Notes: a model not told the origin generated them from the letters alone. Counted from the first letter of the stretch, positions 44,002 through 64,000 are shown. The stretch: DNA of 64,000 bases from Acidobacteriota bacterium (GCA_965209055.1 OZ242374.1:4832001-4896000), one strand, 5' to 3'. Numbers and translations are program-made.

Positions 44002-44015
44002 TCAATCTGAGGAGT

Positions 44016-44064
44016 TGGTGGAGCTGATGGGATTCGAACCCACGACCCCCTGAATGCCATTCAG
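44016..44064 (-). mobile_element. 3' fragment of tRNA-Ala(GGC), att site of an integrated island
   Basis: Minus strand reads CTGAATGGCATTCAGGGGGTCGTGGGTTCGAATCCCATCAGCTCCACCA (anticodon arm, T-arm, CCA). There is no D-arm or 5' acceptor strand, and an integrase is adjacent. Confidence 0.85.
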
Positions 44065-44245: not shown

Positions 44246-45421
44246 ATGCCCACCGCAAAGCTGACCGACAGGCTGCTGAAGAACCTGAAGACGGAACAAA
44301 CTGTCCAGGAATTCTGGGATCAGTCCTTCCCTGGCTCTTTCGGAGTTCGGGTCATGAAGAGTGGGCGAAAAACCTTCATGTTCCTCTATCGAACCGACGG
44401 CCGACGAAGACGGATGAAGCTTGGCGTCTACCCGGCACTTTCTCTGGCTCAGGCCAGGTCCCAGGCGTTCAAATTGCTGGGTGCCGTCCAGCGAGGAGAA
44501 GACCCGGCGGAAGAACGTCGGCAGGAACGCCAAGCCGGTACGTTCGAGGAGTTGGCCGATTTGTATCTGGAGAGGCACGCCCGACCCAACAAGAAACCGG
44601 CCAGCATCAAGGAAGACACCCGCATCTTGAACACCTACCTGCTGCCGGTTTGGGGCCGAAGAAAGTTTCGCACCATCACACGGTCCGATGTCATTCGTCT
44701 TCTGGACGACATCCAATTCAATCGTCAGGCTCCGGTCATGGCCAACCGGGTCAAGGCACTGACCTCCACGATCTTCAATTTTGCGTTGAGGAAGGCGCTG
44801 GTTCCGGAGACATTTGCCAATCCCTGCACCCACGTCGCTTTGCCGGCCAGGGAAAGGAGTCGTGACCGCGTGCTGAGCGACCATGAAATCCGGGCGCTTT
44901 GGAAAGATTTGGAGAACCGAATGGAACCGACCGCTTCCATCTATCGGCTCATCTTGTTGATGGGGCAAAGACCCGGCGAAACGAAAGCGATGCGGTGGCG
45001 CGACCTGGACGACGAGAACATCTGGACCATTCCAGCCACCGAAACCAAGAACAAGCGTGAACACAAGGTGCCCTTGTCGTCGCAGGCTCTGGTCATCATC
45101 GAGGGCCTGCGCCCCTTGACTGGTGACTCGGAATTTGTCTTTGCCTCCCCCAGAGGTGGACACATCCGCTGGCTCCAAAAGATGAGCCAACGCATTCAGA
45201 AAAAAACAGGATTCCATTTTCGACCCCACGACTTGCGGCGGACCTGTGCGACGAACTTGAGCAAGCTCGGCACCGACGATGTCACAATCGCCCGGATTCT
45301 GAACCACTCGTGGCCGTTCCGGCACATGACAGCCGTGTACAACCGGTGGGACAAGCTGCCGGAAATGGGCCGAGCGTTGCAAAGGTGGGGGGAACGTCTT
45401 GAGCAGATGGTCACTGGCTAG
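44246..45421 (+). CDS. Tyrosine integrase with N-terminal arm-binding domain
   Basis: AGGAGGA RBS; GVRV..SGRKTF and LGVYPALSLAQAR; catalytic R (GQRPGE), K (TKN), HDLRR, LNH and Y (VYNR) all present. Confidence 0.93.
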   Translation: MPTAKLTDRLLKNLKTEQTVQEFWDQSFPGSFGVRVMKSGRKTFMFLYRTDGRRRRMKLGVYPALSLAQARSQAFKLLGAVQRGEDPAEERRQERQAGTFEELADLYLERHARPNKKPASIKEDTRILNTYLLPVWGRRKFRTITRSDVIRLLDDIQFNRQAPVMANRVKALTSTIFNFALRKALVPETFANPCTHVALPARERSRDRVLSDHEIRALWKDLENRMEPTASIYRLILLMGQRPGETKAMRWRDLDDENIWTIPATETKNKREHKVPLSSQALVIIEGLRPLTGDSEFVFASPRGGHIRWLQKMSQRIQKKTGFHFRPHDLRRTCATNLSKLGTDDVTIARILNHSWPFRHMTAVYNRWDKLPEMGRALQRWGERLEQMVTG

Positions 45422-45464
45422 AAGAGAGTGGTTTCATTCAGGCCAAACGCGGGCACTGGGTGCG

Positions 45465-45599
45465 GTTGTGCCGCACGGGTTCCGGTCGTCATTCCGAGAC
45501 TGGGCGGCCGAGGAGACGGATCATCCGCGCGAAGTCGTCGAGGCGGCGTACCGGCGGACGGACCTGTTCGAGCGCTGGTGTCGGCTCATGGAGGACTAG
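45465..45599 (+). pseudogene. P4/IntA-like integrase C-terminal remnant
   Basis: VVPHGFRSSFRDWAAEETDHPREVVEAA-YRRTDLFERW (internal deletion). Confidence 0.8.
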
Positions 45600-45724
45600 G
45601 CGAGCTATCTGGCTGGCGAGATCCGGGCTCGGGCGTCCGTCCGGGTCTGTTGATCCGCCGTGGTGGTTCTCCCGGCAGGCTTCGAGATCTGGCGTTCGAG
45701 GCGGCGTCCGGGAGTTCGAACTGG

Positions 45725-46020
45725 ACCGCTGAAAAGTGGGGTTCCGCGCCCGAACCGGGAGTGTAAGTGAGACAAAGAACGCGAGTTACATCGCGGAAGT
45801 CTGCCGACTTACACCTCCGATTTCCCCGATCTCTTTATCGGTCATGCAGTTACGTCCATATTCCCGGCTTCGCCGTGCCCGCACGGGGAAATCGGAGGTG
45901 GACGGGAGCGACCCCCCATTTTTCCTGCCCGGTGCGGGCATGGCGGTGTTGCGCAACTTACATTTGCGCAGCACCCCCTGGGGGGTCGCTCCCGTCGCAT
46001 TTTTCCCTCGCGGGAAGGCA
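45725..46020. repeat. Structured noncoding element, copy 1
   Basis: Homologous to 48800-49092 and 49726-50018; three interleaved 14-18-bp inverted repeats plus two hairpins. Confidence 0.75.
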
Positions 46021-46150
46021 GTATGAACTCCCAACGAAGTGCCCGTATGTAATTGGAATTCAAGGTCGTCGAGTCCTGACCGGTAGATCGCTACGGCTGA
46101 GTTGGACCTTAAAACCGCCTCCTCTCGGGAACCTATGGTAGGCTTTTGTT

Positions 46151-46348
46151 ATGGCGATCATGCTGTCGGAAGTTTACGATGCGCTTATGGAGGCAGGTGC
46201 GAGCGAGGCCAAGGCTCGCGCCGCCGCCGAGCAGGTCGCCAGCCACAATAGTCGGTTACTCCGACTCGAAGTCATGACCGCATTGATCCTGACGCTGGTC
46301 GTAGCGATTTTCGTAATGGTGATCAATCTCTCCACCAAGCCTGCCTGA
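46151..46348 (+). CDS. Small coiled-coil + C-terminal TM protein
   Basis: EVYDALMEAGASEAKARAAAE followed by a hydrophobic helix. Confidence 0.65.
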   Translation: MAIMLSEVYDALMEAGASEAKARAAAEQVASHNSRLLRLEVMTALILTLVVAIFVMVINLSTKPA

Positions 46349-46589
46349 TTCAATTGAGAATCAGCGATCGCCGTGGTTCCCGGTCTATACCTGGAGAACT
46401 CGGGGCATCCTGTGGATCCAGCCTCCGTCGCAGTCGAGTCGGCGTAAGCTCGGGACTCCCTCATGAGTGCAATATTGGATAGGGCAGCCTGTTAGATCAT
46501 GCGTCTTTCCTGATGACCCATGTGATTCCTTGAAATAGGCTGGATTCAAATCTGCTTCCCCCGTTTAGGAACGCCCCCTTTCACAAATC

Positions 46590-46850
46590 CCCGTTGTGGT
46601 CGATGGTGTTCGCTCGCCAGGTACTGGACATCCTCCAGCGGCACGTTGTAGCTGAGCAGATCCGTGACCACCAGACCGCGAAACGAGTGGGCCGAGAGGA
46701 TCTCCGGCAGCCCGGCCGCCTTGAGCCGGAGCTTGAGAATTAGCTGCACGGCGAGAGGTAAACGCGACCGCTCGGTTTGCCTTCCCGCAGGTCTTTCGGA
46801 GACGACGGCGGTGCCGATCTTACGTCGCCATTCGAAGGCGCGAGGGTGCG
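46590..46850 (-). pseudogene. XerC/D-like recombinase C-terminal remnant
   Basis: LKLRLKAAGLPEILSAHSFRGLVVTDLL..NVPLEDVQYLA; no N-terminal part. Confidence 0.7.
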
Positions 46851-46983
46851 AAATTCGTCCTGGGTCGGTGGCTCCTTGCCGACGCCCATCCCCCATTCAC
46901 TTTCAGATACGATCTGTTGGGGGTCCCCGGATACGCCCGAAACGACGGTTGGGGGTCTACGGTCACCCAAGGGACTACGGTAG

Positions 46984-48609
46984 ATGCTCGTATACGCGAA
47001 TCGGCTACAAGTTCACGGCGAGGCTTCCGAATCGGTGGTATTCAGAGCCATCGGCGGCTGGCTCAAGGAACAGCTTGGGTTCGGTCTTCATCCGGAGCAA
47101 CTGCTCTTGACCGGAATACACAACGGCCGACGCGGGGAACTGCCATCGCGGCTTCAGATCTTCAGCTGCTACGACGGCGATCCAGCGCTATGTGTATGGG
47201 TACTGAAGCACGGGGATGTGGCTGTCCGAGGACGACGGTGGACTGTCGAGATCGGGATCAAGAAGTCCGCTGGAACGTTGGAAGTCTCGTGCGTCGTGAA
47301 GACGGACGAAGGCAGCACCTTGGTCTCGACTCCCGTCAGTGCGTCCCAGCCACGGGTTATCCGATACATCGTCAACAACGTTGCGGACTCCAAGGAGATC
47401 ACCTTCGCCAAAACCGTACCCGGCGAGGTCCTGCGGACAGTTGGCGAAGATCGTGACTCGTACCGGGCTTTCTCATACTACATCCATCGGCACGACCGAA
47501 ACGGCCCAATCGTCCTCGTAAGCCCCACACGGGAGGGTGCATACCTCGTCAGTCCGACCGAACTTCAGAAAACTCTGATTGGCCTGGCTAACGTCGTTCA
47601 TGTGCTGCCGGGCTCCAACACCTACGAAATGGCGGACGGACTTGGGCGTCGGATGTCGGCCTGGGACGGAGCGGTGAACGTGCTGTCCATCCCATCGCCA
47701 TCAGGCGAGGTCCGGTCTCGGCTCTTCCGCTCGGACGAGATTCAAGCGTGGGGCGAGCATCCGCAGCGGATCTCGCGGGTCTTGGCGTGGGTAACCGTGA
47801 CGACCAACGTTCCGCGGTTGCGAGAGCGTGTCCGGCCGGAAGGTGTAAGGCTACTGTCCACGCGGCGGCGCATGGAGAAGCTGCGGGCAAGCGCAATCAA
47901 GATGAAGGAGGAGGAGGGGCGTCAAGCGCTGATCGAGGCCTCGCGACAAGCGGAGGAGGAGCAGGAACGAGTCTTCGAAGGGTTCGCGGAGGAGAACGAA
48001 GATCTCCTCAACGAAGTCTCGCGGTTGGAGGATGAACTCCGGGATGCGCAGGACGAACTTCGGAGGAAAGCCTACGAACTCAGTGCCGTGAAGGGTCAGC
48101 TTTCCGCCGCCGGCACCGAGAAGAGCGTCGAATTCGATCCCGGCCCTCTCTTGCGCCTCCTTGCGCGGAAGTGGCAGCCGAGCCCTTTGGAGTGCCTCGA
48201 CATCATCGAGCAGTACCATCGCGACAAATGTACGGTCCTGGACAGTGCTCGGAAGAGCGCAAGGAAATCTCCATTCATCAACGGATGCGAATTACTCGAT
48301 CTGTTAATCCGCCTCGTAACCGAGTACCGTGCTGGCTTGCTGGAAGGAGACGACGGCAAGGCGCGCTTGGTGTTCGGGAAGAACGAGTACGCAGCGAAAG
48401 AATCTGAGACCGTCACGGCGAACCCGGCGATGCGACGCCGGAGAACCTTCTTCTACGATGGCAGACCGTTGGAGATGTTTCGACATCTGAAGATCGGGAT
48501 CGCCGACGACCCGACGCAAACGGTACGGGTTCATTTCCACTGGGACGGAACTCGCCGGAAGATCGTGATCGGGTACTGTGGAGAACATCTCCCGGTTACC
48601 AGCCACTAA
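46984..48609 (+). CDS. 541-aa hypothetical protein with central coiled coil and possible RelE-like C-terminal domain
   Basis: Intact ORF; E/R-rich coiled coil at about aa 295-375; C-terminal RHLKIG...RVHFHWD...IVIGYCGEHL. Confidence 0.7.
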   Translation: MLVYANRLQVHGEASESVVFRAIGGWLKEQLGFGLHPEQLLLTGIHNGRRGELPSRLQIFSCYDGDPALCVWVLKHGDVAVRGRRWTVEIGIKKSAGTLEVSCVVKTDEGSTLVSTPVSASQPRVIRYIVNNVADSKEITFAKTVPGEVLRTVGEDRDSYRAFSYYIHRHDRNGPIVLVSPTREGAYLVSPTELQKTLIGLANVVHVLPGSNTYEMADGLGRRMSAWDGAVNVLSIPSPSGEVRSRLFRSDEIQAWGEHPQRISRVLAWVTVTTNVPRLRERVRPEGVRLLSTRRRMEKLRASAIKMKEEEGRQALIEASRQAEEEQERVFEGFAEENEDLLNEVSRLEDELRDAQDELRRKAYELSAVKGQLSAAGTEKSVEFDPGPLLRLLARKWQPSPLECLDIIEQYHRDKCTVLDSARKSARKSPFINGCELLDLLIRLVTEYRAGLLEGDDGKARLVFGKNEYAAKESETVTANPAMRRRRTFFYDGRPLEMFRHLKIGIADDPTQTVRVHFHWDGTRRKIVIGYCGEHLPVTSH

Positions 48610-48799
48610 GCCGAGGACCCATTGGGTCGCATGATTCGCGAGGCGCGGGCAGCACCGGCTTACCAGCGACACCAACCATCAAGGCGCACCAACAGCGGGC
48701 CGTCGGGCGGCTACCAGCGGCGGAAGGTCGCTCCTTCCAGGTCGTGATTGACCGTGAACTCACTTGTCAGTCGCAAAGGCTGATGGAGGCTCGTTTCGG

Positions 48800-49092
48800 C
48801 TGTGCGTAAAGGGGGGCTCGTGCCCGTACGGGAGTGTGAACGGGACATGCGGGGTGGATTCACAAAAAGCGGTCCCGGCGGTTCACAAAGCCGCTTTCTC
48901 CGATCTCTTTGTCGCTCATGCAGTTACGGCCACATTCCCGGCTTCGCCGCGCCCGCACGGGGAAAGCGGAGGTGGATGGGAGCGCCCCCCCCTTTTTGCT
49001 GCCCGGTGCGGGCGCGGGGGTGTGGCGCCATTCACAATTGCGCCACACCCCCTGGGGGGGCGCTCCCATCGAATTGATCCCTACGGGAAGGT
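48800..49092. repeat. Structured noncoding element, copy 2
   Basis: Same stems as copy 1 with compensatory substitutions. Confidence 0.75.
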
Positions 49093-49479
49093 GGAAGAAA
49101 CGCTCTATGAAGTGGAGAAATGTGGTCCTCGTTCCGGCTGGATTGGCGGCAGTGATCTGCCGCTGCGGATAGGGTCCCCTTCCCGGGCTTGGAGACAATC
49201 CCGTATCGGATCGGATCGCTGTTCACGAGCCAATGCTGCATGCGGTGGTCCAGGCTGGGGACGATTTGGCGTCAAGCGCCGGGGAGCGCACAGCCCACCA
49301 GCCAGCGCGGCCAACAAGAGTGCCTCCATTGAGATGATTATGATACCAATGTGGGTCCCACTCATTCTTACAGCGGAAGCTTCCACCAGAGTTATGGGAG
49401 CCGCGACACGATGGCAAGGAGCCCAGCGACGGCGGCCAAGATGGCTCCGCTGGAGCCAGAGGGCACGGAAAGGCTGGGG

Positions 49480-49705
49480 CGGGTGGCGAGCGGCGCGACC
49501 GCGTCGTGTCGGTCCTCGGACCACAGGACGCAGTAGTGCGGCACATGCGGGCCTTGCCGCACCGGGAGTTGGCGTCGGTGCTCTGGAAGCTACGGGCCTC
49601 GGAGGCAAAGCCCGTGGCTCGGTTGGCCTTCGAGTTCCTGGTGCTCACGGCGGCGAGGTGGGACGAGGTGCGCTGGCGGATGTGGTGAAAAACAAAGTCG
49701 AGCCG
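49480..49705 (+). pseudogene. P4/IntA-like integrase remnant
   Basis: HMRALPHRELASVL...LAFEFLVLTAARWDEVR joined out of frame to VVKNKVE. Confidence 0.75.
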
Positions 49706-49725
49706 GATTCCAGGAGGTCGATCTT

Positions 49726-50018
49726 GACCGCTGAAAAGTGCGGTTCCGTGCCGATCGGGGAGTGCACATGAGACAACGGGGGGCATGTGCACCATGAGGG
49801 CTCGTCGACGTGCACGGCGACTTTTCTCTAACCTGCTGTCCCCGTTCGGGTTACGGATTTCCTCGCGGCTCGGCGGTGTCGCTCGGGGAAAGCGGAGGTG
49901 GACGGGAGCGACCCCCTTTTTTTGCCTCCCGGATCGGCAATGCGGGGCAGCCTGATGTGCACTCGCGTGCCATCGTCTTGGGGGGTCGCTCCCGTCTCAT
50001 GATCCCTTCGGGAAGGCC
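49726..50018. repeat. Structured noncoding element, copy 3 (most diverged)
   Basis: GACCGCTGAAAAGTG start shared with copy 1; GGGGAAAGCGGAGGTGGACGGGAGCGACCCCC ... GGGGGTCGCTCCCGTC ... CCCTTCGGGAAGG. Confidence 0.7.
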
Positions 50019-50197
50019 AACAGAAAACAGGTTTGTGCGTCGCCACACACAGACCGACGCACCAGGACGGCGCCTCGTGACCCAGCAAAGAGAACCTTGC
50101 TAAGCCTCCATCGAAGGAGTACAAAGACGAAGACCGTGCAACGCCTCGCGGTAAACCCATCCAAGAAAGCGGGACACCTTCAATAGATAGAGACGAA

Positions 50198-52447
50198 GTG
50201 CCTCAACCAAAGCATTACGCACACAGTGCGGAATCGGCTGCGCGAAACCGGTGGCACCCGCTGGCGAAGCATTTGGAAGACACGGCAGCGACCGCAAAAG
50301 AATTTCTCGCACCTGTGGTTGGAGGGGAATTCGGGTTCGCAGCCGGTCTACTACACGACCTTGGCAAGTACGCGCCGCGATTCCAGCGACGGCTCGACGG
50401 CGCAGGCCGTGTTGACCACGCCACGGCTGGCGCCAAAAAGGCGATCGGGCGTTACGGGGAGCTTCGCGGCAAAATGTTGGCATTCTGTATTGCCGGTCAT
50501 CATGCCGGCCTCGCCAACGGTGTGAATGGCCACAAAATCTCCGCCCTGGCAGACCGGCTCCAGAAGCAGGTTCCACGACTCGACCCGGTGTGGAACGAGG
50601 AGATCACATTTCCAGACTTACCAATACCATCCCTTAAGGCGCGTGATCGGGACAGCGCGGCCTTTTCCGCCTCCTTCTTCATCCGCATGGTGTTCTCCGC
50701 TCTTGTGGACGCGGACTTCCTGGACACGGAGGCGTACTACAATGCGCTGGCAGGAACTTCGAAGGCACGCGGGCAGCACCCGGAACTGCGAGAGTTGTCC
50801 GGGCGTCTCGATACATATCTCCAAACGCTTGGGTTGAGCGCAGAGCCCAGTGACGTGAACAGGCTGCGTCAAGAGGTGCTGATTTACGCCCGGAAGCAGG
50901 CAGCAAAGCCACCGGGCCTGTTCACTCTGACCGTTCCCACGGGAGGCGGCAAGACGCTGACCTCCCTTTCCTTCGCCCTGGACCACGCCGCGCGCCACGG
51001 GCTTGCGCGGGTCATCTACGTAATCCCTTACATGAGCATCATCGAACAGACGGCCGCCGTGTTTCGCGAGGCGCTCCGCGACGGCCCGACCGGTGCAGCG
51101 GACTTCGTTGTCGAACATCACAGCACCTTCGAAGATTGGCCCTATAGTCGGGAGGCGAAGGAAAAGCTGTTCCTGGCGATGGAAAACTGGGACGCCCCCA
51201 TCATCGTCACCACGGCCGTACAATTCTTTGAGAGCCTGTTCGCAAACCGCCCCGCACGCTGCCGCAAGTTGCACAACATCGCAAACAGCGTCATTGTCCT
51301 GGACGAAGCACAGACCCTGCCCTTGAAATATCTGCGTCCCTGCGTTGCCGCCCTCGACGAGTTGGCCCGTAACTGGCACGCGAGTGTCGTGCTCTGCACG
51401 GCTACACAGCCAGCCCTGGCAGAAACCTCCGGCTTCCGTGGAGGCCTGGAGAACCTGCGCGAGTTGGCCCCCGAGCCTCAGCTTCTCTACCAAACCCTGA
51501 AGCGCACACAGATTCGTAGTGTGGGACGGCTGGGCGACGCCGTACTCGCAGAACGGTTGCGTGATTCGCCGCAAGTCCTGTGCATCGTTAACACTCGGCG
51601 CCACGCCCGCGAGCTGTACGAAGCGCTCGGGGACATCGAGAACACCTTTCATCTGACCACCCTGATGTGTGCACACCATCGAAGGGAGCGACTCGACAGA
51701 GTACGTGTGCTCCTGAAGGAGGGGGCACCGGTGCGATTAGTCGCTACATCTCTCATCGAGGCCGGGGTCGATGTGGACTTCCCTGTCGTCTGGCGAGCAG
51801 AAGCGGGGTTGGAGTCGATTATCCAAGCCGCCGGACGGTGTAACCGCGAAGGTCGAGTACCCCTCGCTGACGTGTTCGTGTTCGAGCCGGAAGAAGGGGA
51901 AGGGCGCAAGCCCCCACCAGAGATCTGCCAGTTCGCAGCAGCGGCGCGTAGCGTCCTGAGCCGCCACGACGATCCCATGTCCCTGACGTCCATCGACGAC
52001 TACTTCCGGGAACTCTACTGGAGCAAGGGCAAAGATGCACTCGACGCCAAACACATCCTTCGGCAGCTACGTGAGCGTCGAACAACCCTAGACTTCCCCT
52101 TTGAGACTATCGCCCGGGAGTTTCGGTTGATCGAGACAGCCATGGAACCAGTGATTGTCCCCTATCGTGGCGCCAACTGCGACGCCCCAACCGTCGATCG
52201 CCTCCTCGAAAATCTGAAGTGGGTCGAGCGCCCGGGCCACATCGCACGCCTGCTTCAGCCCTATGTCGTAAATGTCCCATCTTCGGCAAGGGTGTCGCTG
52301 CTACGCGCCGGCGCCGCGCGGATCGTCCGGGAAGCCGATTTTGGTATGCAGTTTGTAGTTTTGACCAATATCGACCTTTACCACGAGGAACTTGGCTTGA
52401 TTTGGGATGATCCCACGTTCCTTAAGTTGGAAAGTCTTCTCATGTGA
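50198..52447 (+). CDS. cas3: Cas3 HD nuclease-helicase (type I-C)
   Basis: HL..., LHDLGK, GHH, SALVDAD, PTGGGKT, DEAQ, IEAGVDVDF and QAAGRCNREG. Confidence 0.96.
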   Translation: MPQPKHYAHSAESAARNRWHPLAKHLEDTAATAKEFLAPVVGGEFGFAAGLLHDLGKYAPRFQRRLDGAGRVDHATAGAKKAIGRYGELRGKMLAFCIAGHHAGLANGVNGHKISALADRLQKQVPRLDPVWNEEITFPDLPIPSLKARDRDSAAFSASFFIRMVFSALVDADFLDTEAYYNALAGTSKARGQHPELRELSGRLDTYLQTLGLSAEPSDVNRLRQEVLIYARKQAAKPPGLFTLTVPTGGGKTLTSLSFALDHAARHGLARVIYVIPYMSIIEQTAAVFREALRDGPTGAADFVVEHHSTFEDWPYSREAKEKLFLAMENWDAPIIVTTAVQFFESLFANRPARCRKLHNIANSVIVLDEAQTLPLKYLRPCVAALDELARNWHASVVLCTATQPALAETSGFRGGLENLRELAPEPQLLYQTLKRTQIRSVGRLGDAVLAERLRDSPQVLCIVNTRRHARELYEALGDIENTFHLTTLMCAHHRRERLDRVRVLLKEGAPVRLVATSLIEAGVDVDFPVVWRAEAGLESIIQAAGRCNREGRVPLADVFVFEPEEGEGRKPPPEICQFAAAARSVLSRHDDPMSLTSIDDYFRELYWSKGKDALDAKHILRQLRERRTTLDFPFETIAREFRLIETAMEPVIVPYRGANCDAPTVDRLLENLKWVERPGHIARLLQPYVVNVPSSARVSLLRAGAARIVREADFGMQFVVLTNIDLYHEELGLIWDDPTFLKLESLLM

Positions 52448-52489
52448 ATACTCTACAATCTCGCACACATTAGGATGATTTTCTACTAC

Positions 52490-52518
52490 ATGCACGAAGA
52501 ACAAAAATATGCCATACT
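52490..52518 (+). promoter_or_regulatory. Putative promoter of the mini-array/hicA transcript
   Basis: ATGCAC (52490-95), 17 bp, CATACT (52513-18) with extended TGn; implied start site is near the first pseudo-repeat. Confidence 0.45.
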
Positions 52519-52525
52519 TCCGAGT

Positions 52526-52624
52526 GTCGTTGGCCGACGAGAGCCAACGCGGGTTGAAACGTGCAAGTGGTGCGTTTGGTCGCAACGAGTCGTCCCCGGC
52601 TGCTCCGGGGGCGCGGATTATCCG
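52526..52624 (+). CRISPR. Single-spacer mini-array with degenerate type I-C repeats (crRNA-like regulatory RNA candidate)
   Basis: GTCGTTGGCCGACGAGAGCCAACGCGGGTTGAAAC, then a 28-nt spacer, then GTCGTCCCCGGCTGCTCCGGGGGCGCGGATTATCCG. Both units keep the GTCG start, a hairpin and the CG-YGGRTT 3' part of the array repeat. Confidence 0.8.
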
Positions 52625-52672
52625 GTAGGACAACGAGGAAAGTGGATTTAGACCCAGCAGCCGGAATTTGCC

Positions 52673-52879
52673 GTGAAGGTTCGCGATGTCATACGCACGC
52701 TCAAGCAGCATGGGTTCCGATTGGACCGTCAATCCGGAAGCCACAGGCTGTTCGAAGGTGTGGCCGGCGGACGCCGCCGCATAGTGCCGGTACCCGGAAA
52801 GGATGGCGACGACGTTCGTGTAGGTACGTTGTCAGCAATCCGACGGCAATCCGGTCTGCCAAAGGCGCTGTTCCGCTAG
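52673..52879 (+). CDS. hicA: HicA-family mRNA interferase toxin
   Basis: KVRDVIRTLKQHGFRLDRQSGSHRLF...VPVP...GTLSAIRRQSGL. Confidence 0.9.
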   Translation: MKVRDVIRTLKQHGFRLDRQSGSHRLFEGVAGGRRRIVPVPGKDGDDVRVGTLSAIRRQSGLPKALFR

Positions 52880-53208
52880 GTAATCGCAGGAAGTTTATGG
52901 TGGAAGGAACGACCCTGAAAACAACCGGCCGCGCCTGGAACTCGAGACAACCACGTCATGAACGCGAGTTTTGCGCGAAGGTGCCATGGGGACTTGCGTG
53001 CCAAGAAATGGCTTTGTTCTTGGACCGGCAACTCGGCAACCCTCTCCAAGTAAAGTTCGATACAGACGGCGAGCGATTTCTTGACTTCGTCCAGAGACGG
53101 CGCGAACGTTGCGACATCCAAGTCGATGCAGATCGCTTCCCAATCATCACCGGAGGGGTACGCATAGCATTTGAGGTCAAGGGTCACATTCGACTCCCTG
53201 GGTTCCAT
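52876..53208 (-). CDS. HicB-like protein lacking an obvious DNA-binding domain, convergent with hicA
   Basis: YPSGDDWEAICIDLDVATFAPSLDEVKKSLAVCIELYLE matches the HicB N-terminal pattern. Alternative GTG start at 53187 after GGGAG. Confidence 0.65.
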   Translation of the reverse strand: MEPRESNVTLDLKCYAYPSGDDWEAICIDLDVATFAPSLDEVKKSLAVCIELYLERVAELPVQEQSHFLARKSPWHLRAKLAFMTWLSRVPGAAGCFQGRSFHHKLPAIT

Positions 53209-53294
53209 ATGGTAAAGGGAGGCATCTACCATCAAAATACCAAAGGATGGCACCATATGCACGGAGTCGCAGCCCACGACGCCGAGAGGACCTT

Positions 53295-53966
53295 ATGCCA
53301 TACGGAGTGAAGTTGCACATTTGGGGTGACTACGCCTGCTTCACGCGACCCGAAATGAAGGTTGAGCGGGTGTCGTACGACGTGATAACACCTTCCGCGG
53401 CGCGCGGGGTCGTCGAAGCGATTCATTGGAAACCGGCCATCCGCTGGATGATCGACCGCATCCACGTCTTAAAACCGATCCGCTTTGAGAACCTCCGCCG
53501 CAACGAGTTGGGTCGAAAGATTCCAGCAGGCAGTGTCCTTCGGGCGATGAAACAAGGCAAGACGGAGGGACTTTACACCCTGATTGAGGACAACCGCCAG
53601 CAGCGGGCCACGACCCTGTTGCGCGACGTGGCCTACGTTATCGAAGCGCACTTCGTCCTCACTGAGGCCGCGACGTCTTGCGACACCGCAGCCAAGCATC
53701 TGTCCATGTTTAACCGACGTGCTTCCAAGGGCCAGTGCTTTCACCGACCCTATCTCGGTACCCGTGAATTCGCCGCCAACTTCGCGCCAGTGGAGGGCAT
53801 GATGCCAAAGTCAACGCTGCCTACCACTCAACAGGATCTCGATTTGGGCTGGATGTTGTACGACATCGACTTTGAAGATGATCGGTCCCCCCGTTTTTTC
53901 CGCGCCAAGCTGCAAAATGGCGTGATGGACGTGCCGCCGCTGGACTCCGAGGAAGTCAGGGCGTGA
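53295..53966 (+). CDS. cas5c: Cas5c (Cas5d), type I-C
   Basis: WGDYACFTRPEMKVERVSYDVITPSAARG, RRNE, LRDVAY and PYLGTREF. Confidence 0.96.
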   Translation: MPYGVKLHIWGDYACFTRPEMKVERVSYDVITPSAARGVVEAIHWKPAIRWMIDRIHVLKPIRFENLRRNELGRKIPAGSVLRAMKQGKTEGLYTLIEDNRQQRATTLLRDVAYVIEAHFVLTEAATSCDTAAKHLSMFNRRASKGQCFHRPYLGTREFAANFAPVEGMMPKSTLPTTQQDLDLGWMLYDIDFEDDRSPRFFRAKLQNGVMDVPPLDSEEVRA

Positions 53967-55747
53967 GTATTCTTCAAGCTCTTGCCAGCCATTACAAACG
54001 CCTTCATGCAAATGGAGAAGCGCCAGATTACGGGTATTCCCGTGAGCCGGTTTCGTTTGCCATCGTGTTGTCGCCGGATGGTGAACCCGTCGATGTCATG
54101 GATTTGCGGGATCCATCAGGCAGGATGCCAAGGCCATCGCTCCGCGGGGTACCCCGACCCGTCACCCGCTCATCGAACATTGCCGCTAATTTCCTGTGGG
54201 ACAAGACCGCCTATACGCTCGGCATGAAGCGTGACCGCGACACGAAACAGCCGACGTCCGCAAGCCGCGAGCACGCTGCTTTCAGGAAGCTACACCAAGA
54301 ACTGCTCCCAGGGACAGGAGACGAGGGACTCAAAGCTCTACGCATCTTCTTGGAGCAATGGCAATCGGAGAATTACTCCAGCCTACGGCACGGAGACGAC
54401 ATGCTGGACGCGAACGTCATCTTTCGACTTGAGAGCGAACAGCGGTTCCTGCATCAGCGGCCAGCGGCACGAGGTATCTGGCAAGCCTATCTGGCAGGAA
54501 CAGACAAATCTCTAGGTCTCTGTCTTGTCTCAGGTGAGCAGGCACCGATCGAACGGCTTCACCCGAAGATCAAAGGCGTCAGAGGAGCGCAATCCTCTGG
54601 CGCGTCCATGGTCTCTTTCAACCTTGACGCCTTCGCATCGTTCGGCAAGAGGCAAGGCTCCAATGCCCCCGTGTCGAAACGAGCTGTCTTCTCCTATGCC
54701 ACCGCCCTGAACACGTTGCTGGCAAGGGACAGCGCGCGACGCATTCAGATCGGCGATGCGACGACGATCTTCTGGGCCGAGGCATCCGGCAACGAAGCGT
54801 GTGCCGCAACGGCGGAAGATTTGTTCTCGTTGCTTGCCGATCCGCCGACGGATGCGGAAGAAGCCATCAAGGTGGGAGACAAGCTCTTGGCGGTTGCGGA
54901 AGGTAAACCGCTGACCGCTGTCGAGCCAGAATTAGACGAGCACACAAGTTTCTACGTGCTTGGACTCGCTCCCAATGCGGCGCGCCTCTCGGTCCGTTTC
55001 TGGCATGTTGACAGCATCGGAGCGATTGCACGACAGATTGGCGAGCACTGGCGTGATCTGCTCATTGATCCGCTTCCCTGGACCACCCCGCCTGGCGCAT
55101 GGCGCCTGCTATACGAAACGGCCGTGCAGCGTAAATCTGAAAACATACCGCCAATCCTCGGTGGCGCGTTAATGCGTTCGATACTAACAGGTGGTCGTTA
55201 TCCCCGATCTCTACTTGCCGCCGTCGTGGCCCGAATGCGCGCCGAGGGAAACATCACGGCCCTCAGGGCAGCGATCTGTAAGGCATGTCTTGCCCGTGAC
55301 CACCGCCTGGGCTTCGAAATGGAGGATGTACCCGTGAGCCTGAACCCGGAAGAAACCAACCAAGCCTATCGCCTTGGAAGACTGTTTGCTTTGTACGAAG
55401 ACGTCCAACGTGCCGCCTTGGGCAATGTCAACTCGACGATCAAGGATCGCTATCTTGGGGCCGCTTCCGCCACCCCAGCATCGGTTTTCCCCTTGCTTGA
55501 GCGCAACTCCGCGAATCACCTTGCGACGCTCCGGAAAGGCAACAAAGGTGGTCTAGCCCATTGGTTTGAGCAACAGATCGACTCCATATTCGACGGTTTG
55601 GACGGGTCCTTTCCACGTAGTCTTCGTCTTGAGGATCAAGGACGTTTCGCGATCGGCTATCACCACCAGAGAGTCAAGAAACGAACCTCTTCAGACAAAG
55701 GAAGAGAAGGTACGGACGCCGAAACCCATGATGAGGAAGGACCATGA
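53963..55747 (+). CDS. cas8c: Cas8c/Csd1
   Basis: [46 protein letters not shown] and [11 protein letters not shown]. Confidence 0.95.
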
Positions 55748-56676
55748 ACCCGATCAAACACCGCTATGACTTCGTTTATCTGTTCGATGTCACCAACGGG
55801 AATCCGAACGGCGACCCGGACGCGGGTAACCTGCCACGTCTTGACCCGGAGACCAATCAGGGGCTGGTTTCGGATGTCTGTCTGAAGCGCAAGGTGCGTA
55901 ACTTCGTCGCCTTGACCAAGGAAGACGCACCGGGCCACGAGATCTATGTCACCGAGCGTGCCATTCTTGAACTGCAGCAAAAGCGCGCCTGGGAAGCGAT
56001 TATCCCTGAAGCCACAGCCAAAGATCGGGAAAAGCTCCCCAAGGACCAGCAGAAAGCCCGTGAGATCACACGGTGGATGTGCGCTAACTTCTTTGATGTC
56101 CGTACATTCGGTGCAGTCATGTCAACGAGGGGCGCCAACTGCGGTCAAGTGCGCGGTCCGGTCCAGTTCTCGTTCGCGCGTTCGATCGATCCGATTCTCC
56201 CTTTGGAGGTCTCCATTACACGGATGGCTGCGACCACCGAAGCCGACGCCGAGTCCAAAGGCGACATCCGCACGATGGGCCGTAAGCACATCGTCCCCTA
56301 TGGCTTGTACCGCGCTCACGGTTACGTATCCGCTTGTCTCGCCGGGGGTGCTAAGGGTACCGGCTTCTCCGAGGAAGATCTTGCACTAGTCTGGTTGGCT
56401 CTCGAACAAATGTTCGATCATGATCGATCTGCGGCCCGTGGCGAGATGGCAGCACGGAGGCTGGTCCTGTTCGAGCATGAAACCGCACTCGGCAATGCGG
56501 CCGCCCACCGGTTATTCGAGCGCGTCGCGGTCAAGCGAGCATTCGACGGTAGAGAATACGAGCCCGGCGCGCGCGATGCTCGCCATCTGCCGCCAGCACG
56601 GGCCTACACCGACTATGCGGTCCACATCGACGAGACGGATTTGCCGAACGGGATAAAGATCATAGACCGGATCTGA
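55744..56676 (+). CDS. cas7c: Cas7c/Csd2
   Basis: [44 protein letters not shown] and DRSAARG. Confidence 0.96.
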
Positions 56677-56680
56677 ATTG

Positions 56681-57316
56681 ATGGATGCGATCGAACCTGT
56701 CGCACAAGACGAATTGGTACCGATTTCGGCCCTGCAGCACATGCTCTACTGCCCGCGACAATGTGCGCTCATCCATGTCGAGCGGCACTGAGCCGAAAAC
56801 CGCTTTACTGCCGAAGGAAGCATCTTGCACCTGCGCCCCGACGCCGGAAGGGACGAACGCCGCCGCACCATACGAATCGAGCGCAGTGTTCCCCTCCGCT
56901 CTTCTCGGCTTGGTCTTTTCGGCGTGGCCGATGTAGTCGAGATGCATGCCGGCGGACGCATCTATCCGGTGGAGTACAAGCGCGGCCGGCCCAAGACTCA
57001 TCGTGCCGACGAAGTGCAACTCTGTGCGCAGGCAATTTGTCTAGAGGAAATGCTGGATGTCCCTGTTCTGGAGGGAGCCTTGTTCTATGGCCGCAGCCGG
57101 CGCCGTAAGGTGATCGTATTCGATGCTGGGCTGCGCGCGCTCACCGAAGCCGTCGCCGCCGATACGTGGAGCATGCTCGCCGCCGGCCGGACGCCACCAG
57201 CCGAGTTCGAAGCGCGCAAGTGCAACGCCTGCTCGCTCAAGGAAGCATGTCAGCCAGAGAGCCCCCGAGGGGCAGATGTCGTCGATCGCTGGCTGAGGCG
57301 CGCCGTCGAGGGCTGA
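56681..57316 (+). pseudogene. cas4: Cas4 interrupted by an in-frame TGA at 56789-56791
   Basis: [32 protein letters not shown]...GVADVVE..PVEYKRG..QLCAQA...CNACSL..C; the stop replaces the usually conserved Trp. Confidence 0.88.
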
Positions 57317-57327
57317 TACAAAGTTCC

Positions 57328-58368
57328 ATGCGCCGTCACCTGAACACCCTGTACGTGACGACGGAAAACGCTTGGCTGCACAAGGATGGCGAGAATGCGG
57401 TGGTCAAGGTAGAGGGCTCAGAACGCGGCCGTGTACCCGTACATCTCCTCGGCGGCATCGTCTGTTTTGGTTCGATCGGACTGACGCCGCGACTGATCGG
57501 GCACTGCGCCGAACGCGGCGTTTGCATCTCACTGATGACCCGCTACGGCCGCTTTCTGGCTCGCGTCGAAGGCCCTGTCGCTGGAAACGTGCTTCTGAGG
57601 CGGAGTCAATATCGCGCCAGCGATGATGAGACCACCACCGTAACGCTGGTACGCAACTTGTTGACGGGAAAACTGCTCAATCAACGGACCGTAGTCCGGC
57701 GGGCGCTACGTGATCATGGCAAGAACATGCAGCCGGATGCACGCGCCCGCATGGAAGCCTGCGAGCGCCGACTGAGTGGTGCGGTGCGGCGCACGACTCG
57801 ATCAAAATCGACGAACGTACTGAGAGGAATCGAAGGAGACGCCGCGCGGACCTACTACAGCGTGTTCAATGATCTAGTATTGAGGACAGAATCAGCCTTC
57901 AGGTTCACAAACCGTTCGCGCCGACCGCCACTCGATCCAGTGAACGCTTTACTGTCGTTCGTTTATACCCTTCTGGTTCACGATTGCCGATCGGCCCTGG
58001 AAACTGTGGGGCTCGATCCCGCTGCGGGATTCTTGCATCGAGATCGTCCAGGTCGACCGGGCCTTGCGCTCGACCTCATGGAAGAGCTGCGGTCCGTAAT
58101 CGCTGACCGTCTGGTTCTATCGTTGATCAATCGCAAACAGATCTCGGCCAAAGATTTCACCACGGCAATCAGTGGGGCAGTCTCATTGCGAGACGATCCA
58201 CGGAAGGCGATTCTGGTCGCGTACCAAGCGCGAAAGAAAGATGAACTGACGCACCCGTTTCTCAAGGAAAAAATGATGCTCGGTATCGTCCCGTTCGTCC
58301 AAGCTACTCTGATGGCCCGGCGGTTGCGGGGTGACCTTGACGGCTATCCTCCGTTTCTCTGGAAGTAG
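57328..58368 (+). CDS. cas1: Cas1, type I-C
   Basis: LNTLYVTT, GNVLLRR, LRGIEG, RSRRPPLDPVNALLSF, GFLH, DLMEE and YPPFLWK. Confidence 0.96.
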   Translation: MRRHLNTLYVTTENAWLHKDGENAVVKVEGSERGRVPVHLLGGIVCFGSIGLTPRLIGHCAERGVCISLMTRYGRFLARVEGPVAGNVLLRRSQYRASDDETTTVTLVRNLLTGKLLNQRTVVRRALRDHGKNMQPDARARMEACERRLSGAVRRTTRSKSTNVLRGIEGDAARTYYSVFNDLVLRTESAFRFTNRSRRPPLDPVNALLSFVYTLLVHDCRSALETVGLDPAAGFLHRDRPGRPGLALDLMEELRSVIADRLVLSLINRKQISAKDFTTAISGAVSLRDDPRKAILVAYQARKKDELTHPFLKEKMMLGIVPFVQATLMARRLRGDLDGYPPFLWK

Positions 58369-62611: not shown

Positions 62612-63433
62612 TCATGCCCCCCTCCTCCCCAAGCCCGATTCCTGGGCACTGACGGCTCGGGCGGCGGTCGGATGGATCGCCTTCGAGAGCTCCGCGTGGT
62701 GCCTCAACCGGTAGCTATTGCCTCGGATGTTGACGATGTGGCACCGGTGCAGGATCCGGTCCAGAAGCGCCGCCGCCATCACCTCGTCCCCCAAGATCTG
62801 GCCCCATTCCTCGAAGCCCTTGTTCGAGGTCAACACCGTCGAGGCCCGCTCGTAGCGCCGGTTCACCAGTTGGAAGAACAGCACCGCTCCGCTCTGGCTG
62901 ACCGGTAGGTAGCCGATCTCATCCACCACCAGGAGCGCCGGATGGGTCAGGGTCTTGAGCCGGTGGTTGAGCCGGCCCGCCGCTTTCGCTTCCTCCAACG
63001 AGTCAATCAGGTCCACCAACGTGCCGTAGTAGACCCGCCGACCACGCTCGGCCGCGGCGATCGCCAGGCTGATGGCCAAGTGCGTCTTTCCCACCCCGGG
63101 CGGACCCAGGAAGACGATGTTCTCCCGTCGCTTCACGAAGCCCAGCTCGTGCAGCGAGTCGATCTGCTCCCGCTTGATCGAAGGCTGGAAGCTGAAGTCG
63201 AACTCCGCGAGCGTCTTGATCGTCGGCAGTCGGCTGGAACGCATCGCCGCCTCCAGCCGCCGGCTGTTGCGCAGGGCGATCTGGGCCGCCAGGAGCCGTT
63301 CGATGGCTTCCGAGGCGGTGGTCCCTCCACCATCCACTCCGGAGAGTACGCTATCCAGGGCTTCCAGGGCACCCGGCATCTTCAGGTCCGCCAGCTGGGC
63401 GGCGATGCGCTCACGACGGGAAGGGAGGTTCAC
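62612..63433 (-). CDS. istB: IS21 helper ATPase
   Basis: KTLAEFDFSFQP, GPPGVGKTHLA, VDEIGY, TSN and LLDRILH. Confidence 0.95.
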   Translation of the reverse strand: MNLPSRRERIAAQLADLKMPGALEALDSVLSGVDGGGTTASEAIERLLAAQIALRNSRRLEAAMRSSRLPTIKTLAEFDFSFQPSIKREQIDSLHELGFVKRRENIVFLGPPGVGKTHLAISLAIAAAERGRRVYYGTLVDLIDSLEEAKAAGRLNHRLKTLTHPALLVVDEIGYLPVSQSGAVLFFQLVNRRYERASTVLTSNKGFEEWGQILGDEVMAAALLDRILHRCHIVNIRGNSYRLRHHAELSKAIHPTAARAVSAQESGLGRRGA

Positions 63434-64000
63434 GACACCCCTCCCGTGAGGCGGGCATACTCGGTCAGGGGACGGCGCTCGACGTCCACCATACGCGGCC
63501 AGTTCGTCGCCGGTACCGGAGTTGCCGACGGCTTCGGCAGTGGAACCACAGTGGAGTGGTAAGGCCAAGTGGCCAAAGGAGTTAGAGTCTCACGCTCCCG
63601 CTCGAACCGGTCCACGGGCCGTTCCTTGAGCGTCCCGTGGTTGCGGACATTGGCCTCTTCGTCCCGCCACTTCCGAGCCCGGGCGTTGAGATCGGTGTCC
63701 GAGACGAAGTCCCGGCCATAGAAGAAACTCTCCCGAATGTAGCGGACCGGCCGCTCCACCTTCCCCTTCGTCTGAGCTCGATAGGGTCGGCAGGCCCGCA
63801 CCCGAAAACCCCAGTGGCGGCTGAAGCGAACGAACTCCCGGTTCTCGATCAACCGTCCGCCCTCTTCGCGCCCATCCCGGACGATGACCGCCTTCATCTG
63901 GTCGAACAGAAGTTCCCCAGGGACACCCCCGAAGTAAGTGAACGAGGCCTCCAGGCCCCGCATCACCACCGGCATCGTCTTGCGCTCGTAGTACCGAAAC
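63430..64000 (-). CDS. istA: IS21 transposase, C-terminal part
   Basis: FGGVP..LLFDQMK, CRPYRAQTKGKVERPVRY, RNHGT and VERRPLTEY. Confidence 0.93.
   Translation of the reverse strand, partial: FRYYERKTMPVVMRGLEASFTYFGGVPGELLFDQMKAVIVRDGREEGGRLIENREFVRFSRHWGFRVRACRPYRAQTKGKVERPVRYIRESFFYGRDFVSDTDLNARARKWRDEEANVRNHGTLKERPVDRFERERETLTPLATWPYHSTVVPLPKPSATPVPATNWPRMVDVERRPLTEYARLTGGVS

Follow-up and report, generated by a model that had tools for sequence, protein, structure and literature searches.

What is a folded, non-coding element doing in three copies between integrase remnants and CRISPR-Cas genes? The question is raised by a 64,000-nt stretch of the genome of an Acidobacteriota bacterium (GCA_965209055.1, OZ242374.1:4832001-4896000), hereafter the window, to which all coordinates refer unless marked as genome coordinates. 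An earlier reading of this DNA, the original prediction, had proposed three diverged copies of an integrase-associated structure with interlocked helices, acting as an RNA switch or antisense immunity RNA or as a folded single-stranded DNA (ssDNA) site of recombination or replication. Here, we describe this element, the module, as a member of a large family whose conserved partner is an uncharacterised gene, X, in conjugative secretion clusters. We propose that the module is the origin of transfer (oriT) region of integrative conjugative elements widespread in Acidobacteriota and Gemmatimonadota, that X encodes a MOB_C-like relaxase or an oriT-binding protein, and that copies devoid of X are oriT-only hitchers, a reading that we judge to be, on balance, the probable one. 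Among the functions suggested earlier, the folded ssDNA site comes closest to it.

The module and gene X in conjugation clusters

In the genome's own conjugative element, genes for a primase/helicase-like protein (CHC2 zinc finger and AAA_25), VirB2, VirB3, a VirB4-like ATPase, VirB9, VirB10, VirB6 and VirB8 are followed by X, the module, the coupling protein (T4CP; TrwB/TraG-D), VirB11 and ArdC, in this order. This places the module within or beside conjugation genes, where an oriT is looked for. The VirB4-like ATPase gene (L046:12058-14757, minus strand) matches P-loop_TraG, DUF87 and AAA_10, yet a genome-wide search with the VirB4 profile PF03135 was blank. The secretion system is thus divergent, and blank family searches are weak evidence.

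The arrangement is conserved across phyla. We took the best 80 of 571 stretches from a genome collection that encode relatives of X and searched them with a covariance model built from the 171 nt at the 3' end of the module. These loci derive from Acidobacteriota (including Terriglobia and Bryobacterales), from Gemmatimonadota (Longimicrobiales, Palauibacter) and from one metagenome-assembled genome labelled as Gammaproteobacteria. The module lies on the strand of X in 73 of the 80 loci and ends 237-394 nt (median 306) after it. VirB8 is encoded upstream in 71 loci and the T4CP directly downstream in 54; an integrase-like match within 6 kb was found in just 12. Judged from this gene order, X and the module form an ancient pair that has been conserved as part of a conjugative system, and the integrase-linked copies are derived. 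The earlier view of an integrase-associated structure has to be revised in this respect, as the principal partner is X and the integrase context is secondary. Integrases flank the module only where X has decayed or been deleted.

Gene X encodes a candidate relaxase

X encodes an uncharacterised protein of 307 amino acids (aa) with a predicted winged-helix N-terminus and a predicted restriction-endonuclease-like C-terminus. The gene is intact at G000:C1:1582321-1583244 of the genome, in the order tRNA-Phe, P4-type integrase, X and module, and has five further full-length paralogues there; the X of the conjugative element occupies genome 1832396-1833328. At E <= 0.001 it has 3205 database relatives, none of them named and one fused to VirB8. 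In the AF2 model of X (pLDDT 82.5), residues ~1-90 resemble winged helices of the MarR family (Z 8-9.3, root-mean-square deviation 1.8-4.0 over 65-89 residues); the top rows of a Foldseek search were MarR-type too, none at E <= 0.001. The C-terminal 212 residues, modelled alone (pLDDT 82.8), match mostly PD-(D/E)XK nucleases at Z 5-7.5, namely NucS (7.5), SdaI (7.4), AF1548 (6.8), CdiA-CT (6.5), N.BspD6I (6.5), FokI (6.0) and many restriction enzymes. No solved structure was matched by sequence.

MOB_C relaxases are related to PD-(D/E)XK nucleases, and TraX of pAD1 has an N-terminal winged helix-turn-helix and binds repeats 70-120 bp from the nick, according to the accessible portion of the source (PMC12857230). 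The AF2 model of X contains the winged helix-turn-helix that characterises MOB_C, and its domain architecture, as modelled, would be that described for these relaxases. Canonical relaxases were sought as well. The profiles PF03432, PF08751, PF03389, PF07514 and PF13814 had no match in the genome, PF13814 being silent in control genomes too, and none was recognised among the 51 distinct open reading frames (ORFs) scanned over ~59 kb around the element. Phage collections gave no match for X or the module, and in the partly accessible literature on Acidobacteriota or sponge symbionts nothing relevant to relaxases or conjugative elements was found.

A dispersed family in the genome and its relatives

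Instead of the three copies first noted, the family comprises 63 places in the whole 6.08-Mb genome by BLAST with copy 1, and at least 68 matches by the covariance model. The copies are 75-90% identical. Homology of copy 1 with the others stops sharply at 46019, and the 63 copies share this 3' edge at the equivalent position; on the 5' side, the boundary of a copy depends on how far its X or integrase remnant has decayed. Upstream flanks fall into a few classes, which are decayed pieces of X: the gene is full-length at 3 copies, a remnant at 18, an inverted remnant at 5 and undetectable at 37. An integrase lies on the same strand within 3.5 kb upstream of 27 of the 63 copies, often at a fixed 369 nt. 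A T4CP stub follows 7 copies, and an intact secretion cluster surrounds a single one, the other 62 lying outside.

Among 41 related genomes, the module was found in 13 by BLAST, including all eight other species of the genus that were searched, and in 17 by the covariance model. X occurs in 18 of them, and all 17 genomes with a module have X or X remnants.

A recurrent unit of ~2.9 kb, present in at least seven copies, consists of a 419-aa integrase (int419), a spacer and the module. The six ORFs of the ~1.1-kb spacer had no Pfam match. The spacer (L031:1860-2960 and equivalents) contains an inverted X remnant together with an inverted, diverged second module detected by the covariance model (examples in Table 1), so that the unit has two modules in opposite orientations. 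Arrays of two or three copies also occur in the genome. The pairing of copies 2 and 3 of the window is repeated elsewhere at a spacing of 884-888 nt, compared with 926 nt here; with this near-equal spacing, the pair belongs to a larger backbone that has been duplicated.

Three further features of the family were observed. Five copies are interrupted at one point in the loop of the terminal hairpin, between CCTGCGG and ACTGTTTCTATAAAG, by an insert that is common to them over at least 550 nt. One integrase-plus-module unit (G000:C1 ~3379000-3382500, partly L006) is interrupted by an insertion in which three ORFs of 254, 317 and 331 aa follow one another; judged from the ORF sizes and N-termini, it looks like a recombinase-in-trio element. 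At least 13 copies have a second conserved stretch of ~45 nt just 3' of the module (AATGACACCCGTGACGGGCAAGATGGGA and variants), which resembles a -35/-10 promoter and might point outward into the cargo.

A fold conserved at the level of base pairs

Copies 1, 2 and 3 align over ~300 nt with 77% mean column identity, which bears out the proposed three diverged copies of a folded element; the copies exist as claimed, and their best-fitting ends (Table 1) differ from those first given. A repeat finder recovered the inverted repeats B/B', C/C' and A/A' at the positions given for them, and the alignment shows the reported compensatory changes, GACGGG/CCCGTC to GATGGG/CCCATC and GATTT/AAATC to GCTTT/AAAGC. 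In helix C, a CACCTCC stretch is paired with GGAGGTG. As ssDNA, copy 1 folds with -86.1 kcal/mol on the plus strand and -88.7 kcal/mol on the minus strand, against shuffle means of ~-54 to -55 (z = -8.68 and -8.71; 0 of 200 shuffles equally good). Its minimum-energy fold is nested, with helix C, then helix B around the small hairpin and hairpin D, then the terminal hairpin.

The proposed interlocking of helices fared less well. The A/A' arms are present as described, but the minimum-energy fold does not need their crossing pairing, and comparative support for it is weaker (81.4% paired, compared with no more than 57.8% after sliding the partner; two positions covary). The arms are also members of a short palindromic motif that occurs three times, so that protein-binding repeats are an alternative to base pairing between them.

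Selection on base pairs, as originally proposed, is borne out by many more homologues, within the genus and across two phyla. In the cross-phylum set, the 47 best hits fitted to the covariance model, 89.6% of the cells are standard-paired compared with 45-64.2% after sliding the partner, 19 of 31 pairs changed on both sides compared with 1-8, and none of 500 column shuffles reached the observed values. For the genus set, MAFFT was used to align 39 copies along all 300 nt, and RNAalifold supplied the structure from the same data. Here 89.0% of the cells are paired (42-51.1% when slid) and both sides changed in 35 of 80 pairs. Such changes affect 4 of 6 pairs in the 5' hairpin E, e.g. GTGTAAGT/ACTTACAC and GTGCACATG/CATGTGCAC, and 10 of 14 in hairpin D. 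Helix B has an invariant core, AGCG.CCC/GGG.CGCT, surrounded by covarying pairs, a pattern that fits a stem recognised by a protein.

Which strand folds was addressed through wobble pairs and loops. Read on the plus strand, G-T exceeds A-C by 238:64 in the 39 genus copies and by 126:50 in the model-fitted set, a count biased by a structure that had been predicted on the plus strand. It is helix C (33:10) and helix D (28:10) that show the excess, and this suggests that the plus strand could be the folding strand. The terminal loops of copies 1, 2 and 3 read TCGC, TAC and TTC on this strand and thus GCGA, GTA and GAA on the other, just as first reported. The pattern extends beyond the window, as 61 of 78 distinct cross-phylum rows have T-N-C on the plus strand (G-N-A on the minus strand) with all four bases occurring in the middle. 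A G-N-A loop closed by a C-G pair forms a very stable mini-hairpin.

The original prediction recognised no named RNA family in the element, and Rfam agrees. It gave no gathering-level match in the window, and below threshold there were chance-level rows only (E <= 10 over 45400-50300; E <= 1 over two full-length elements). ARAGORN reported neither tRNA nor tmRNA in the window, and a tmRNA or tRNA-derived structure was rejected.

A proposed origin of transfer and alternative explanations

We read the module as an origin of transfer because it adjoins the coupling protein and the putatively DNA-binding, nuclease-like X, and because it is retained while its neighbours decay, is linked to integrases and has defence cargo alongside. 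Strong PADLOC hits lie within 5 kb in 10 of 20 flanks, a sample picked by hand without a genome-wide background control, and comprise type I, II and III restriction-modification, HEC-05, PD-T4-6 and Cas. X would bind the module sequence-specifically, with the invariant core of helix B and/or the thrice-present palindromic motif as candidate features. A nick would be made in one strand close to where the module ends on its 3' side, probably in the plus strand just past the terminal hairpin and within a few bases of 46016-46025; the sharp edge at 46019 is suggestive of the nick position. The nicked strand would then be passed to the coupling protein and moved 5' to 3', with the DNA on the right entering the recipient first, i.e., T4CP, VirB11 and ArdC in the intact element and defence cargo in the islands. 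On this strand, now single, the hairpins would form again and so mark where transfer terminates. Copies that lack X and secretion genes and retain an integrase, among them the three copies in the tRNA-Ala CRISPR island of the window, would be oriT-only hitchers mobilised in trans by an element that encodes X. Such mobilisation would explain why a non-coding module is better conserved than the genes next to it.

Several observations weigh against an oriT. No nick site could be identified from the sequence. X has no Pfam, NCBIfam or PHROG match. Its C-terminal structural matches are modest, although one fold dominates the list, and its invariant acidic and lysine residues could not be placed in the canonical PD-(D/E)XK motif. 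Plasmid records contain no match for X or the module. The relative G004 has 47 module matches and X in partial form only, and in G023, which represents a different family of the order, 13 matches to the module were found and a 61-residue remnant is the sole trace of X; the modules of both are either fossils or dependent on incoming helper elements. The PADLOC sample has the limit given above, and the alignments behind the covariation were fitted to the model or scored on a structure predicted from themselves. The strand signal is mixed, with G-T:A-C at 5:9 in helix B and 2:3 in helix E and a G-N-A loop that favours a stable hairpin on the minus strand. Finally, the module occupies the sense strand of the operon between X and the T4CP gene, and in Gemmatimonadota its 3' GGAAGG lies ~10 nt before the start codon of the latter, a position that an mRNA leader fits equally well.

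A structured RNA is the main alternative, to which this position leads, i.e., a cis leader, processing or stability element of the virB-X-T4CP transcript that controls the T4CP, with passive dispersed copies. Besides the location between two co-oriented genes in 54 of the 80 loci, it would account for the overall excess of G-T pairs, for the pairing of CACCTCC with GGAGGTG, for RNA-like covariation and, in Gemmatimonadota, for a terminal hairpin that could mask GGAAGG. Yet 56 of the 63 copies have no T4CP to regulate and 37 no X, and still they retain their identity; the T4CP of Acidobacteriota starts ~50-70 nt further downstream with a GGAG of its own; and recognition of DNA by a protein would better suit both the unvarying sequence at the centre of helix B and a terminal loop that reads G-N-A on the other strand. 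With Rfam blank as well, we consider an RNA function unlikely. The strong fold of either strand could also belong to a leading-region element, such as an ssDNA initiation or priming site or a promoter that folds in the recipient, or to the replication origin of the excised element. The primase/helicase-like protein encoded by the element, the promoter-like stretch that seems to follow the module in several flank families and the presence of ArdC and defence genes on the same side would agree with this. The fixed place beside X and the coupling protein, however, is typical of an oriT, and no separate oriT candidate was seen. A leading-region role would be compatible with oriT function, from which sequence alone separates it poorly; as an explanation in its own right it is rather improbable.

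Even less probable is a recombination or transposition end, be it an attachment or accessory site of P4-type integrases or a selfish repeat akin to REP sequences or miniature inverted-repeat transposable elements (MITEs). The integrases upstream of 27 copies, frequently at the same distance, the multiplied integrase-plus-module unit, the sharp 3' edge common to many different flanks and the two- and three-copy arrays would all be expected of such an end. Against it, the island in the window is bounded by tRNA-Ala repeats and not by the module, which is internal to islands, and across phyla an integrase-like match is found near 12 of the 80 X loci compared with 71 for VirB8. A TnpB/IscB-like protein with a guide RNA, to which a structured element with a sharp 3' end ahead of variable sequence might have pointed, was set aside, as intact loci have a conserved T4CP after the module and not a variable guide.

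Relation to known systems

An oriT of the proposed kind would be most comparable to those of MOB_C systems (TraX of pAD1, MobC of CloDF13). The partner of the module would share the architecture given for TraX in the accessible portion of PMC12857230, as the model of X joins a winged helix at the N-terminus to a domain resembling PD-(D/E)XK nucleases. The module is likewise an intergenic, repeat-rich site beside conjugation genes. A further resemblance is that MOB_C elements have their oriT between the relaxase gene and the secretion operon, according to the available part of 10.64898/2026.01.13.699239. The module differs in being downstream of X and not upstream. It differs further in its ~300-nt multi-helix fold, compared with direct repeats and one inverted repeat, in the lack of a detectable Pfam or NCBIfam sequence match of its partner and in its exclusively chromosomal occurrence in Acidobacteriota and Gemmatimonadota, with no plasmid match.

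OriT-only islands with defence genes near the oriT were described by Ares-Arroyo et al. (bioRxiv 10.64898/2026.01.13.699239, in the part accessible). The islands with a module resemble these iOriT hitchers in that they combine an integrase with a sequence like an oriT, lack genes for a relaxase or a secretion system, have defence genes nearby, outnumber their putative helper and share similarity with it in the oriT only. Unlike the oriT families of that study, which by the same partial account covers six nosocomial species and oriTs upstream of known relaxases, the module belongs to uncultured lineages associated with sponges, and the candidate relaxase linked with it is unclassified. A further difference is that one island can have several modules and that X or T4CP persists as decayed stubs, which shows that larger elements have eroded to give many of the copies.

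Integron attC and other folded ssDNA sites share with the module a variable sequence with conserved structure, imperfect inverted repeats and compensatory changes. The recombinases next to the module, however, are P4-type (Arm-DNA-bind_3 and Phage_int_M), there is no cassette array, and the conserved partners are X and a secretion cluster in place of an integron integrase. REP/BIME, Correia-type repeats and MITEs likewise populate a single genome with dozens of scattered non-coding copies that are structured and 200-300 nt long. The module differs from them by a fixed ancestral position in a gene cluster conserved across phyla and by the flanking-gene remnants that its copies keep; bracketing terminal repeats were not evident, though no search aimed at these was made.

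The island around the copies in the window

The three copies lie in an island whose limits, ~21.6 kb apart, are given by a 50-bp repeat of the 3' end of tRNA-Ala(GGC) (Table 1) and by the intact tRNA-Ala gene, located by ARAGORN at genome 4897593-4897668 on the minus strand, ~1.6 kb past the end of the window. From the distal repeat onwards, the island comprises an intact integrase; an int419 stub and copy 1; unknown ORFs; an X stub, copy 2 and a T4CP stub; an internal int419 stub and copy 3; and type I-C Cas genes. BLAST and tblastn agree with the earlier observation that copies 1 and 3 adjoin integrase remnants. The 409-aa integrase has a paralogue with 95% identity at genome 1246382-1247782, and int419 precedes the module in many copies. 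The X stub upstream of copy 2 is below the tblastn threshold used for the census of the 63 copies. An IS21-type IstB ATPase gene (62612-63568, minus strand) lies in the island downstream of the Cas genes.

Table 1. Coordinates of the module copies, their helices and neighbouring features (window coordinates unless marked as genome or by a locus label)
Feature	Position	Strand	Basis or remark
Module copy 1	45720-46019	+	Alignment, repeat finder, BLAST, folding; covariance-model match 45850-46019
Copy 1 helix C/C'	45812-45828 with 45884-45900		17/17 paired (repeat finder)
Copy 1 helix B/B'	45901-45918 with 45979-45996		18/18 paired (repeat finder)
Copy 1 helix A/A'	45871-45888 with 45928-45945		18 nt, 89% (repeat finder)
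Copy 1 small hairpin	~45927-45941		Inside helix B
Copy 1 hairpin D	~45946-45975		Inside helix B
Copy 1 terminal hairpin	46004-46015
Module copy 2	48793-49092	+	Alignment, repeat finder; covariance-model match 48924-49092
Copy 2 helix B/B'	48975-48991 with 49054-49070		17/17 paired
Copy 2 hairpin D	49016-49032/49036-49052
Module copy 3, diverged subfamily	49718-50017	+	Alignment, repeat finder; covariance-model match 49851-50017
Copy 3 helix B/B'	49901-49916 with 49981-49996		16/16 paired
Distal direct repeat, 50-bp copy of tRNA-Ala(GGC) 3' end	44015..44064	.	100% identical to genome 4897592-4897641
P4-type tyrosine integrase, intact, 409 aa	44192..45421	+	Pfam Arm-DNA-bind_3, Phage_int_M, Phage_integrase
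C-terminal remnant and 3' flank of second integrase family (int419)	45428..45662	+	BLAST to int419 3' ends
541-aa ORF of unknown function, island cargo between copies 1 and 2	46984..48609	+	Sole Pfam row sub-threshold PhoU, residues 318-370
Decayed 3' end of X, directly upstream of copy 2	48690..48792	+	DNA aligns with flanks of other copies that encode the X C-terminus
N-terminal T4CP remnant, after copy 2	49095..49256	+	tblastn with T4CP of the genome's own element, residues 10-63
Internal int419 remnant, residues ~211-273	49497..49685	+	tblastn
Type I-C CRISPR-Cas: Cas3, Cas5d, Csd1/Cas8c, Cas7, Cas4, Cas1	50198..58368	+	Pfam
Spacer with inverted X remnant and inverted second module, examples	G000:C1:4966925-4967107, 3840201-3840382, 1600365-1600548
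Copies interrupted in the terminal loop	L045:3100-3700 (G000:C1 ~1583500); genome 1608.7, 3165.1, 3375.0, 4508.9 kb
Examples of the ~45-nt 3' stretch	G000:C1:70733-70790, 3841333-3841390, 1601503-1601560

Implications

It is tempting to go one step further and propose that X founds an unrecognised relaxase family, a winged helix joined to a PD-(D/E)XK domain in MOB_C-like fashion and beyond the reach of current profiles, that serves conjugation in Acidobacteriota and Gemmatimonadota, including sponge symbionts. The oriT belonging to this family would be the module, which at ~300 nt and with several helices is uncommonly large and may include a pseudoknot or an alternative pairing (A/A'). Swarms of defence islands with an oriT alone would have been seeded by it, and a single genome has over 60 copies. 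We advance this broader proposal tentatively, as plausible rather than probable.

If the oriT reading is true, it would supply a transfer mechanism for dozens of orphan integrase islands with CRISPR-Cas, restriction-modification and other defence genes in poorly studied phyla that include sponge symbionts. It would also mean that conjugation in these bacteria relies on a relaxase that no current annotation picks up, and that mobilome surveys score such elements as relaxase-less. X and its covarying 300-nt site would form a protein/DNA pair amenable to experimental testing. For screens of non-coding RNA, the module would be a caution that a covarying fold reminiscent of a riboswitch can belong to a mobile element and act as a DNA site.

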